5,622 nucleotides of DNA from a virus (lineage: Duplodnaviria > Heunggongvirae > Uroviricota > Caudoviricetes): IMG/VR virus record IMGVR_UViG_2531839485_000005; one strand, 5' to 3'. Shown one piece after another: positions 1 to 5,600 of this stretch. The notes beneath the pieces were generated by a model that was not told the origin of the DNA, did not search any database, and saw only the letters and a list, made by a program, of their open reading frames with translations. Each line of letters starts with the position of its first letter. The stretch's first letter is position 1. A program made the position numbers and the translations under genes.

Positions 1-734
1 TCAGCACAGCCCGGACGGCGGAAACCACATACCGCTTCACACAACTGGCGCTGGGGAACTACAGGCTGACAGTCCGGGCAGTAAATGCGTGGGGGCAGCA
101 GGGCGATCCGGCATCGGTATCGTTCCGGATTGCCGCACCGGCAGCGCCGTCGCAGATTGAGCTGACACCGGGGTATTTTCAGATAACCGCCACGCCGCAT
201 CTTGCGGTTTATGATCCGACGGTACAGTTTGAGTTCTGGTTCTCGGAAAAGCGGATTGCGGATATCAGGCAGGTTGAAACCGCAGCCCGCTATCTTGGCT
301 CGGCGCTGTACTGGATAGCTGCCAGTATCAATATCAAACCGGGCCATGATTATTATTTTTACGTTCGCAGTGTGAACACCGTTGGCAAATCGGCATTCGT
401 GGAGGCTGTTGGTCAGCCGAGTGATGACGCATCCGGCTATCTGGATTTTTTCAAAGGCGAGATAGGGAAAACCCATCTGGCTCAGGAGCTGTGGACGCAG
501 ATTGATAACGGTCAGCTTGCGCCTGACCTGGCTGAAATCAGGACGTCCATTACGGATGTCAGCAATGAAATCACGCAGACCGTCAATAAGAAACTAGAAG
601 ACCAGAGTGCGGCAATTCAGCAGATACAGAAGGTTCAGGTTGATACAAATAATAACCTGAACAGCATGTGGGCTGTGAAGCTGCAGCAGATGCAGGACGC
701 GCCTTTATATCGCGGGTATTGGTGCCGGTATTGA
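1..734 (+). CDS. J: Tail tip host-specificity protein J homolog, upstream fragment (5' end outside window; frame broken by apparent frameshift, ends at TGA 732-734)
   Basis: The frame with codons at 3,6,9... is open from the window edge and translates to [46 protein letters not shown]...[20 protein letters not shown]...[13 protein letters not shown], which I recognise as closely similar to the C-proximal part of phage lambda J (recalled, not searched). The GTG at 372 in the ORF track is just an internal codon of this longer frame. After QMQD the frame runs into a short nonsense tail ([11 protein letters not shown]), while the J-like sequence continues in another frame. Confidence 0.85.
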
Positions 735-1476
735 GAACACCCCTGACGGCATGCAGAGTCAGGTGCTGCTGGCGGCAGACAGGATTGCGATGATTAATCC
801 TGCGAATGGCAACACAAAGCCGATGTTTGTTGGGCAGGGCGATCAGATATTCATGAACGACGTGTTCCTGAAACGCCTGACGGCTCCCACCATTACCAGC
901 GGCGGTAATCCTCCGGTATTTTCCCTGACACCGGACGGGTGGCTGACGGCGAAAAATGCCGATATCAGCGGTAACGTGAATGCGAACTCCGGGACGCTCA
1001 ACAACGTCACGATTAACGAGAACTGTCGGGTTCTGGGAAAACTGTCCGCCAACCAGATTGAAGGCGATCTCGTTAAAACAGTGGGCAAAGCTTTCCCCCG
1101 GGACTCCCGTGCACCGGAACGGTGGCCATCAGGGACCATCACCGTCAGGGTTTATGACGATCAGCCGTTTGACCGGCAGATTGTTATTCCGGCGGTGGCA
1201 TTCAGCGGCGCTAAACATGAGAGGGAGAATAACGATATTTATTCGTCATGCCGCCTGATAGTACGGAAAAACGGTGCTGAAATTTATAACCGTACCGCGC
1301 TGGATAATACGCTGATTTACAGTGGTGTTATTGATATGCCAGCTGGTCGCGGCCACATGACGCTGGAGTTTTCGGTGTCATCATGGCTGGTAAATGACTG
1401 GTATCCCACAGCAAGTATCAGCGATTTGCTGGTTGTGGTGATGAAGAAAGCCACCGCAGGCATCAGTATCAGCTGA
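679..1476 (+). CDS. J: Tail tip host-specificity protein J homolog, downstream C-terminal (receptor-binding) fragment, in a different frame from the upstream part
   Basis: The frame with codons at 679,682... is open from just after the TGA at 676-678 to the TGA at 1474-1476 and encodes ...[72 protein letters not shown]...GISIS. This matches the lambda J C-terminal region from memory (the lambda stretch ...[30 protein letters not shown]... is almost identical). The first ATG in this frame is at 751, which is the ORF-track call 751..1476, but the homology continues upstream of it, so 751 is not a genuine start. Confidence 0.85.
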
Positions 1477-2143: not shown

Positions 2144-2169
2144 TTAGCCAGGTAACACAGTGTTATGAC

Positions 2170-2197
2170 AGCCCGCCGGTTCAGGCGGGCTTTTTTG
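2170..2197 (+). terminator. Rho-independent terminator downstream of lom
   Basis: 8-bp GC-rich stem AGCCCGCC (2170-2177), loop GGTTCA, GGCGGGCT (2184-2191), followed by a T run TTTTTTG (2191-2197). It lies 27 nt after the lom stop codon. Confidence 0.75.
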
Positions 2198-2203
2198 TGG
2201 GGT
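2198..2203 (+). promoter_or_regulatory. Shine-Dalgarno-like sequence for stf
   Basis: G-rich TGGGGT lies 5 nt upstream of the ATG at 2208. Confidence 0.45.
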
Positions 2204-2207
2204 GAAT

Positions 2208-5200
2208 ATGGCAGTAAAGATTTCAGGTGTACTGAAAGACGGTGCAGGTAAACCGGTACAGAACTGCACAATCCAGCTGAAAGCAAAACGTAACAGCACC
2301 ACGGTGGTGGCGAACACGGTGGCCTCAGAAAATCCGGATGAAGCCGGGCGTTACAGCATGGACGTTGAGTACGGTCAGTACAGCGTTATTCTGTTGGTGG
2401 AGGGATTCCCGCCGTCACATGCCGGGACCATCACCGTGTATGAAGATTCCACCGGTACGCTGAATGATTTTCTCGGTGCCATGACGGAGGATGATGCCGT
2501 CCGAGGCACTGCGCCGTTTGAACTGATGGTGGAAGAGGTGGCGCGTAACGCGTCCGCGGTGGCACAGAACACGGCAGCCGCGAAGAAGTCAGCCAGCGAT
2601 GCCGGCACATCAGCACGTGAGGCGGCAACCCATGCGACTGATGCTGCAGGCTCAGCACGCGCAGCCAGCACGTCAGCCGGACAGGCCGCGTCGTCGGCTC
2701 AGTCAGCATCTTCCAGCGCAGGAACGGCATCAACAAAGGCCAGTGAAGCATCGAAAAGTGCTGCTGCTGCAGAGTCCTCAAAAAGCGCGGCAGCTACCAG
2801 TGCCGCTGCGGCGAAAACGTCAGAAACGAATGCGGCAGCGTCACAACAATCAGCAGCCACTTCTGCATCCGCCGCGACCACGAAGGCGTCAGAAGCTGCC
2901 ACCTCAGCCCGGGATGCGGCGGCTTCAAAAGAGGCGGCAAAATCATCAGAAACGAACGCATCCTCGAGCGCCAGTAGCGCAGCTTCCTCGGCAACGGCGA
3001 CAGCAAATTCTGCGAAGGCGGCCAAAACGTCCGAGACGAACGCCAGGTCTTCTGAAACGGCAGCGGGACAGAGCGCCTCGGCTGCGGCAGGCTCAAAAAC
3101 AGCGGCTGCGTCGTCTGCCAGTGCCGCGTCAACAAGTGCCGGGCAGGCCTCAGCCAGTGCCACCGCCGCCGGAAAATCGGCAGAAAGCGCCGCATCGTCT
3201 GCTTCAACAGCCACAACGAAGGCTGGCGAAGCCACTGAACAGGCCAGCGCAGCAGCGAGGTCTGCTTCCGCAGCGAAGACATCCGAGACGAACGCGAAAG
3301 CGTCGGAAACCAGCGCAGAATCCTCAAAAACGGCTGCCGCATCGTCCGCCAGTTCGGCGGCGTCATCGGCATCATCGGCGTCTGCTTCAAAAGATGAGGC
3401 GACCAGACAAGCGTCCGCAGCGAAGGGCAGCGCCACGACAGCATCCACGAAGGCGACAGAGGCAGCTGGCAGTGCGACGGCGGCAGCACAGAGCAAAAGT
3501 ACGGCGGAATCCGCGGCAACGCGCGCCGAGACAGCGGCAAAACGGGCAGAGGATATTGCATCCGCCGTGGCGCTTGAGGATGCAAGTACGACGAAAAAGG
3601 GGATAGTACAGCTCAGCAGTGCGACCAACAGTACGTCTGAAACGCTGGCGGCAACGCCAAAGGCAGTAAAATCAGCCTATGACAATGCAGAGAAACGTCT
3701 GCAGAAAGACCAGAACGGCGCTGATATACCCGATAAGGGACGCTTCCTGAACAACATTAACGCGGTCAGTAAAACAGACTTTGCTGATAAGCGTGGTATG
3801 CGTTATGTGCGGGTTAACGCTCCTGCAGGTGCAACATCTGGAAAATATTACCCTGTTGTTGTTATGCGTTCTGCTGGCTCAGTAAGCGAACTGGCATCAA
3901 GGGTCATTATCACCACGGCAACGCGAACCGCAGGCGATCCGATGAATAACTGCGAGTTTAACGGATTTGTTATGCCTGGTGGCTGGACTGACAGGGGGCG
4001 TTATGCTTATGGAATGTTCTGGCAATATCAAAACAATGAACGAGCCATCCACTCAATAATGATGAGTAATAAGGGCGATGATTTGCGCTCTGTGTTCTAT
4101 GTTGATGGCGCTGCTTTCCCTGTTTTTGCGTTTATCGAAGATGGCCTGTCAATATCCGCACCTGGTGCTGATCTCGTTGTTAATGATACGACCTATAAGT
4201 TTGGGGCAACAAATCCGGCGACTGAATGTATCGCGGCGGACGTTATCCTTGATTTTAAGAGTGGGCGTGGTTTTTATGAGTCTCATTCGTTAATCGTTAA
4301 CGATAACTTGTCGTGCAAAAAACTTTTTGCCACAGACGAAATTGTAGCGCGTGGTGGTAATCAGATTCGAATGATAGGTGGGGAGTATGGGGCATTATGG
4401 CGTAATGATGGCGCTAAAACTTACCTGCTGCTTACCAATCAAGGTGATGTTTATGGTGGCTGGAATACATTAAGACCGTTTGCTATTGATAACGCAACCG
4501 GCGAACTGGTTATTGGAACCAAACTGTCCGCAAGTCTGAACGGTAATGCATTAACAGCAACAAAGCTGCAAACGCCAAGACGGGTTTCTGGTGTTGAGTT
4601 TGATGGTTCCAAAGATATTACTTTAACCGCCGCGCATGTGGCTGCTTTTGCCAGAAGGGCAACGGATACATATGCCGATGCGGATGGTGGCGTTCCCTGG
4701 AATGCCGAATCAGGCGCTTATAATGTCACCCGCTCTGGCGACAGCTATATTCTGGTTAACTTCTATACCGGAGTCGGAAGTTGCCGGACCCTGCAGATGA
4801 AGGCGCATTACAGAAATGGTGGTCTGTTCTACCGTTCTTCAAGAGACGGTTATGGTTTTGAGGAAGACTGGGCAGAAGTTTATACCTCGAAAAATCTTCC
4901 ACCAGAAAGCTACCCAGTCGGCGCACCAATCCCGTGGCCATCAGATACCGTTCCGTCTGGTTATGCCCTGATGCAGGGGCAGACTTTTGACAAATCTGCC
5001 TACCCGAAACTTGCAGCCGCTTATCCGTCAGGCGTGATCCCTGATATGCGTGGCTGGACGATTAAGGGCAAGCCCGCCAGTGGTCGTGCCGTATTGTCTC
5101 AGGAACAGGACGGCATAAAATCGCATACCCACAGCGCCAGCGCATCCAGTACTGATTTGGGGACGAAAACCACATCGTCGTTTGATTACGGCACTAAATC

Positions 5201-5600
5201 CACGAATAACACTGGTGCGCATACCCATAGTTTAAGTGGCAGCACGAATGCAGCTGGTAATCACAGCCATAGAGATGGCCGTCGATTTAACCCCAGTGTT
5301 TTTAAAGATACTTATCAATATGGTTATACAAGCTCAGGTCAAAATACCTGGGGTGTACAAGGCTCAGTAGGTATGTCTACGGGGGCGTTAGCTAATACCA
5401 GTACAGATGGTAACCATAGCCACTCACTGTCCGGCACAGCAGCATCTGCAGGTGCACACGCACATACTGTCGGTATTGGTGCACACACGCACTCCGTTGC
5501 GATTGGTTCACATGGACACACCATCACCGTTAACGCTGCTGGTAACGCGGAAAACACCGTCAAAAACATCGCATTTAACTATATTGTGAGGCTTGCATAA
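2208..5600 (+). CDS. stf: Side tail fiber protein (lambda Stf family): conserved N-terminal attachment domain, Ala/Ser-rich repeat shaft, distal receptor-binding region with HxH motifs
   Basis: One continuous frame. I prefer the ATG at 2208 ([26 protein letters not shown]..., the characteristic N-terminus of lambda-type side tail fibers) over the GTG at 2202 used by the ORF track. It contains a long low-complexity shaft, the motif [27 protein letters not shown], and C-terminal HxH repeats. It ends at TAA 5598-5600, overlapping the start of a tfa-like gene. Confidence 0.92.
2610..3575 (+). repeat. In-frame tandem array of 23 degenerate 42-nt (14-codon) repeats inside stf, encoding the Ala/Ser/Thr-rich fiber shaft
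   Basis: Cutting the translation into 14-mers from the codon at 2610 gives units that nearly all begin S-A, S-E or S-K ([14 protein letters not shown] / [14 protein letters not shown] / [14 protein letters not shown] / ... / [14 protein letters not shown] / [14 protein letters not shown]). The K(T/S)SETNA motifs start at 2814, 2940, 3024 and 3276, spaced exactly 3x, 2x and 6x 42 nt apart. Confidence 0.8.

Follow-up and report, generated by a model that had tools for sequence, protein, structure and literature searches.

The stretch of DNA analysed here (5,622 nt; hereafter the window) is the entire contig APYE01000026.1 of GCA_000357045.2, the draft assembly of the ETEC E. coli isolate P0299438.5. 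This isolate is one of several ETEC colonies from a single patient, and was sequenced with HiSeq 2000 paired-end Illumina reads at a coverage of >200x, the assembly being made with Celera Assembler (PMC4462620). The window contains four lambdoid tail-module genes, namely the last 1,476 nt of J, lom, stf, and the first 23 nt of tfa (Table 1). Both ends of the contig fall within genes, and the 5′ end of J is cut off in this way. At homologous loci, the gene I lies upstream of J and the module is ordered I-J-lom-stf-tfa, of which the window holds the J-lom-stf-tfa portion, the start of tfa overlapping the stop codon of stf (TAATG). The exact Lom protein of the window is also encoded in complete ETEC genomes.

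Two open reading frames were also observed on the opposite strand. One (2144-2317, minus strand) spans the lom-stf spacer and the start of stf, and is listed as a 57-aa gene in a public catalogue. The other (2699-3448, minus strand) lies over the Ala/Ser-rich repeat region of stf, and is listed there as a 249-aa gene. Neither of them gave a match in Pfam, and both are almost certainly spurious.

Table 1. Features of the window, with positions counted from its first nucleotide
Feature	Position	Strand	Remarks and basis
J, 5′ part (tail tip attachment / host specificity protein)	3..698	+	Codons 669-900 of 1159; translation, Pfam
Private synonymous substitution CTG to CTA (Leu)	596..596	+	103 nt upstream of the deletion
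TGA closing the downstream J frame on its 5′ side	676..678	+	Translation
Deletion junction, GA (bases 2-3 of the Gly901 codon GGA) absent	699..700	+	Alignments
Out-of-frame tail of the upstream J frame, 11 codons and TGA at 732-734	699..734	+	Translation
J, 3′ part	700..1476	+	Codons 902-1159 and stop codon, +1 frame; translation, Pfam
lom (Ail/Lom outer-membrane protein), intact, 199 aa	1544..2143	+	
stf (side tail fibre), open 1130-codon frame as written	2208..5600	+	
Backbone switch point, prophage A to prophage C	2375..2402	+	Three-way comparison
Six missing stf bases, two groups of three	2448..2517	+	About 2449-2456; after 2496, 2502 and 2516
Start of tfa (tail fibre assembly gene), cut by the contig end	5600..5622	+	Annotation of homologous loci

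Position and frame of the J lesion

Up to position 698 the J coding sequence is read in one frame; from position 700 onwards it is read in the +1 frame. The upstream frame (J-like translation of 3-734) runs out into 11 nonsense codons and the TGA at 732-734, and the second frame opens at the TGA at 676-678 and reads to the J stop codon at 1474-1476. The two frames overlap at positions 679-731, and a +1 (or −2) shift is needed to rejoin them. A single uninterrupted J frame of about 1130-1165 codons was not found, the break being located at codon 901. This split is a deterministic feature of the sequence and not a statistical one.

The window was aligned with the J genes of phages vB_EcoS-640R1 and PhiR55_1 and of prophage VT1-Sakai, which are intact or near-intact. 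Where the intact genes read GACG-GA-CGCC, the window reads GACG-CGCC; in the longer segment, the references carry GACGGACGCC and the window GACGCGCC, and this is the single difference in length. Pairwise alignment also placed a 2-nt deletion between 699 and 700, and the placement of the gap is unambiguous. The closest relatives have a 1159-codon J, in which the missing GA makes up the second and third bases of the glycine codon 901 (GGA).

These data bear out what an earlier note, made from the letters of the window, had said of the lesion. The translations of both frames confirm that J is split in two, and that the frames are bounded as described there, the upstream one ending after an 11-codon tail at the TGA at 732-734 and the downstream one being closed at its start by the TGA at 676-678. 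The loss of 2 nt, its predicted site near 697-703, and the +1/−2 shift all proved correct in the alignments and frames; the comparison with intact lambdoid J genes, which the note had recommended, located the indel exactly as GA at 699/700. Its suggestion of a homopolymer sequencing error failed, since no homopolymer is present at the lesion site. Should the lesion be erroneous, the fault lies in the consensus or assembly of a multi-copy prophage gene and not in base calling. Slipped-strand loss was also rejected as an origin of the lesion, because the repeat GACGGACG in the intact sequence would lose 4 nt by slippage, and not GA.

Both J fragments and an intact relative display the Pfam domain series of lambda-type gpJ. 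The 5′ fragment matched Ig_J and Ig_J_second, and the 3′ fragment matched PF09327 (Phage_Tail_Tip) and PF12421 (the C-terminal receptor-binding domain, Ig_GpJ_C). Furthermore, the solved structures of lambda gpJ in the PDB (8iyk, 8k35, 8xcg, 8xcj and others) match both parts of J, including the C-terminal part. The J of lambda and that of the window thus belong to the same family and have a common domain order (FNIII-A, Phage-tail_3, Ig_J, Ig_J_second, Phage_Tail_Tip, Ig_GpJ_C), but the window J is another allele and is split upstream of the receptor-binding domain. The lesion interrupts the Phage_Tail_Tip domain (residues 872-1000) and precedes the C-terminal receptor-binding domain (residues 1029-1159), and would therefore be inactivating if real. 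Translation would then stop 11 codons beyond Asp900, and the 911-aa product, with 900 J residues followed by 11 junk residues, would lack the larger part of the tail-tip fibre domain together with the entire receptor-binding domain.

A full-length J might still be produced if programmed +1 (or −2) ribosomal frameshifting, or another form of recoding, rejoined the two frames. The overlap of the frames leaves room for such an event, and a +1 shift there would restore J-like sequence. However, J is encoded in a single frame with identical flanks in every homologue examined, and the frame break is not conserved, which refutes a programmed frameshift. Direct reading of positions 679-734 revealed neither an X XXY YYZ heptamer nor a +1 site of the CUU-UGA type in which the A-site codon is slow, rare or a stop, and the shifted product would still be devoid of Gly901. 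We consider recoding extremely improbable, in agreement with the earlier note, which had thought a programmed frameshift unlikely and had seen no canonical slippery heptamer. The lambda G/GT genes, which encode the tail assembly chaperones, undergo a conserved −1 programmed frameshift at the slippery sequence GGGAAAG. Both frame changes lie inside the lambdoid tail gene cluster, but that of G/GT is conserved, goes in the −1 direction and has a slippery heptamer, whereas that of J is not conserved, requires +1 and has no slippery site.

A hybrid contig and base losses in multi-copy tail genes

The window is 8 nt shorter than its best full-length relatives, 2 nt being missing from J and 6 nt from stf (2450-2516), and no indel was found elsewhere in the contig against the best references. 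We compared it with two prophages in the finished genome of ETEC-2265 (from Dhaka), the potB-side prophage being called A and the prfC-side prophage C. Up to position 2375 the window agrees with prophage A at about 400 discriminating sites, and from position 2402 it agrees with prophage C at about 190 such sites. J, lom and the start of stf are A-derived, and the body of stf and tfa are C-derived. The contig thus arose by chimeric assembly or by natural recombination, and the cluster of errors at the join favours a chimera.

Of the seven A/C-polymorphic columns present in 2440-2525 (86 nt), stf has lost exactly six, and no other base is missing there. In the first group, TC[A/C]C[A/G]ACC[G/C]GGT has become TCCACCGGT; in the second group, the three variable columns of GC[T/C]CGTCC[G/T]GAGG...GCCG[C/T]TTTG were dropped. 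By our own arithmetic, six losses would coincide with A/C columns by chance with a probability of about 1.5e-8. The stf frame is kept despite the six losses, with about 10 residues rewritten: DSRPGT is changed to DSTGT, and DDARPEALRRFEL to a different 12-residue stretch. This version of stf is absent from complete E. coli genomes, in which the best matches differ solely by the six gaps, and the 1130-aa Stf (WP_024203322.1) is on record from this single contig only. The losses are attributed to assembly because they fall exactly on the columns at which the A and C alleles differ; they are demonstrably a consensus artefact, made when reads of two paralogues were piled together.

The earlier note had regarded both lom and stf as intact, in a prophage that was otherwise possibly defective. 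This is correct for lom (199 aa), but cannot safely be said of stf. When decay of the prophage is judged over these 5.6 kb only, lom is intact, and stf is open but scarred by six assembly-made losses and derived from the backbone of the other prophage.

Genes carried at the ends of related prophages were observed outside the window. In the prfC-side prophage of both W150 and ETEC-2265, a reverse-transcriptase gene and a SLATT-domain gene lie right after tfa on the opposite strand (L004, 18305-20204; L019, 10781-12680), and this pair looks like defence-type cargo at the prophage end. A lambdoid prophage with the same lom-stf junction (L143, 33-1473; GCA_900174625.1) carries SMODS and SLATT_4 genes, a CBASS-like cargo, downstream of a Peptidase_S74 tail fibre.

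We then compared contigs from the neighbouring accessions GCA_000357485.2 (L013), GCA_000358675.2 (L144) and GCA_000359075.1 (L149), the last of which is named p0305293.6 and comes from the same study. In these three contigs, J, lom and stf are cut up by about 90 dropped columns (deletions of 1-7 nt). The dropped columns are restricted to the prophage tail genes, and none occurs in the 4.6 kb of chromosomal flank compared with a finished relative. L144 and L149 occupy the same chromosomal site, yet 58 gap openings separate them in 12 kb, and the mismatch positions of one assembly are deletions in the other. L144 has dropped the same three stf columns (second group) as the window. In L149, the loss of two A/C-variable columns breaks J at points 12 and 21 nt 3′ of the window lesion, and both lesions of L013 are absent from all complete genomes. 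In a fourth contig, L148 (P0302293.2), J is intact. On a panel of about 145 alleles, essentially all of the lost columns are strongly polymorphic or adjoin a polymorphic column with ambiguous gap placement, against a background rate of polymorphic columns of 23-29%. This looks like a systematic consensus problem of multi-copy prophage regions in these assemblies.

Rarity of the J deletion and its possible origins

Positions 1-1500 of the window are 99.8% identical to the gpJ of complete ETEC genomes. Seven of these genomes (120899, 103605, 204446, 602354, 504237, ETEC-2265 and the record LR883006) differ from the window in this region only by the GA and by the synonymous SNP at 596. The potB-side prophage of those strains has the same I-J-lom-stf-tfa order and the same Lom protein, but its gpJ (e.g. 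WP_126130058.1, 1159 aa) is encoded by a single 1159-codon frame, whereas the frame of the window is broken at 901. Related complete ETEC genomes contain 4-7 copies of J each.

An 81-nt query spanning the junction matched at 3,312 places across 2,491 complete E. coli genomes, but never with 100% identity; no 100% match was obtained among 27 phage records, and the exact 28-mer of the junction was not found in IMG/VR, in GTDB species representatives or in JGI metagenomes. The earlier note had named orthologous intact J genes with this very sequence and a documented recoding mechanism as one of the cases that would contradict it; among the genomes, phages, IMG/VR, GTDB and JGI data searched, none carries the junction. 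When both positions were left free in a degenerate search of IMG/VR, GA was present in 121 of 121 matches. In a panel of J alleles, the lost columns were occupied by G in 147/147 and by A in 145/147, the two exceptions at the A column being a divergent B-type allele. The 237-aa downstream J ORF is on record solely from this contig, although clonal sibling isolates may lie outside the coverage. Exact look-ups of this fragment, of the 1130-aa Stf, of Lom and of the two antisense ORFs returned this contig or unrelated long contigs only.

Besides the loss of GA, the G596A substitution is the sole private change in 2.4 kb. All 111 panel alleles have G at position 596, as do all the best matches from 2,805 complete genomes, and no allele with A was detected in these 2,805 genomes (no 100% match to window 556-636) or in IMG/VR. 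A donor allele of G596A that might also explain the loss of GA was rejected, since no such allele was found.

We incline to the view that the J split is an assembly artefact. The contig would be a 5.6-kb consensus in which reads from several near-identical lambdoid prophages of P0299438.5 were merged, and the GA would have been lost during assembly, in an Illumina/Celera pipeline that is demonstrably prone to base loss in multi-copy tail genes. The J of the strain would then be intact and encode a normal 1159-aa tail-tip protein, and nothing biological would take place at 699/700. An assembly origin is preferred because the lesion is unique to the contig, the contig is error-bearing, the neighbouring assemblies are likewise affected, and the J break of L149 lies nearby; we infer that the J lesion shares the general origin of the losses in stf and in the sister assemblies. 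The proximity of the GA loss and G596A, only 103 nt apart, suggests a local problem. J codons 907-913 are a common end point of small contigs in other draft assemblies, and an assembly-graph branch point is therefore located just 3′ of the lesion.

Like the dropped columns of L013, L144, L149 and the window stf, the J lesion is deletion-only, unique to its assembly and located in a multi-copy tail gene. However, those errors fall on paralogue-polymorphic columns, whereas the GA columns are invariant in A- and C-type alleles, and the J lesion was for this reason rejected as a dropped polymorphic column. Given that the approximately 90 artefacts fall on polymorphic columns and that GA is invariant, the J lesion does not bear the recognised error signature, so that its reading as an artefact requires a different, undocumented error mode. 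Two other sources were considered and rejected. The divergent B-type allele (GACGGCAAACATT) would predict other missing columns. Position 699/700 is not the start of paralogue near-identity either, since the B-type J is A-like only from about 805; the C-type J is about 95% identical on both sides of 699/700.

It is quite possible, if short of probable, that the deletion is real and present in the DNA of the isolate, or in one of two near-identical copies of J, so that J is a pseudogene. The invariance of the GA columns, contrary to the error signature of the pipeline, speaks for this reading, as does the second private change nearby at an invariant column: G596A is hard to obtain as a consensus error at >200x coverage, and hints that this copy of J has truly diverged. 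The flanking A/C-discriminating columns 674, 711 and 720 are cleanly of type A. Frameshifted J genes are moreover known in finished prophages, such as VT1-Sakai of E. coli O157:H7 Sakai, in which J is also split into two ORFs by a small mutation, adjoins an intact lom, and is annotated 'truncated protein by a mutation'; its lesion, however, lies near codon 390, unlike that of the window at 901. The VT1-Sakai lesion is credible because the genome is finished, whereas the window is a short repeat-derived draft contig. Against a real deletion, the junction is present in no other searched record, and the seven complete genomes with an otherwise identical J (one SNP aside) are all intact. The 237-aa fragment is encoded in no further assembly on record, although the clonal sibling isolates may not be covered. 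Finally, the contig is a hybrid of two prophages that holds six artefactual deletions, and artefacts account for every other broken J gene examined in neighbouring assemblies.

Consequences for prophage annotation

The biological weight of the J split is very small, and such a split is ordinary whether it is an artefact or real. If it arose during assembly, which is the reading that we prefer, the consequences are of database hygiene only: the J fragments ENC13576.1 and ENC13577.1 in public databases would be spurious, alongside the artefactual Stf WP_024203322.1. The scars in J, lom and stf of assemblies from the same study could mislead counts of ETEC prophage pseudogenes and comparisons of host range, and the tail genes of these assemblies are unfit for pseudogene or host-range inference unless the reads are consulted.

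If the deletion is real, particles of this prophage would be non-adsorbing unless another resident prophage supplied J. That the prophage would still make a usable J, either by low-level +1 recoding at GAC-GCG or by complementation, is exceedingly unlikely. With complementation, the 900-residue N-terminal part may assemble into the tail tip, and receptor binding may be provided by a separately initiated C-terminal fragment (ATG at 751 or 763) or by the J of another prophage. A real deletion would otherwise add one more defective lambdoid prophage, which is a very common state.
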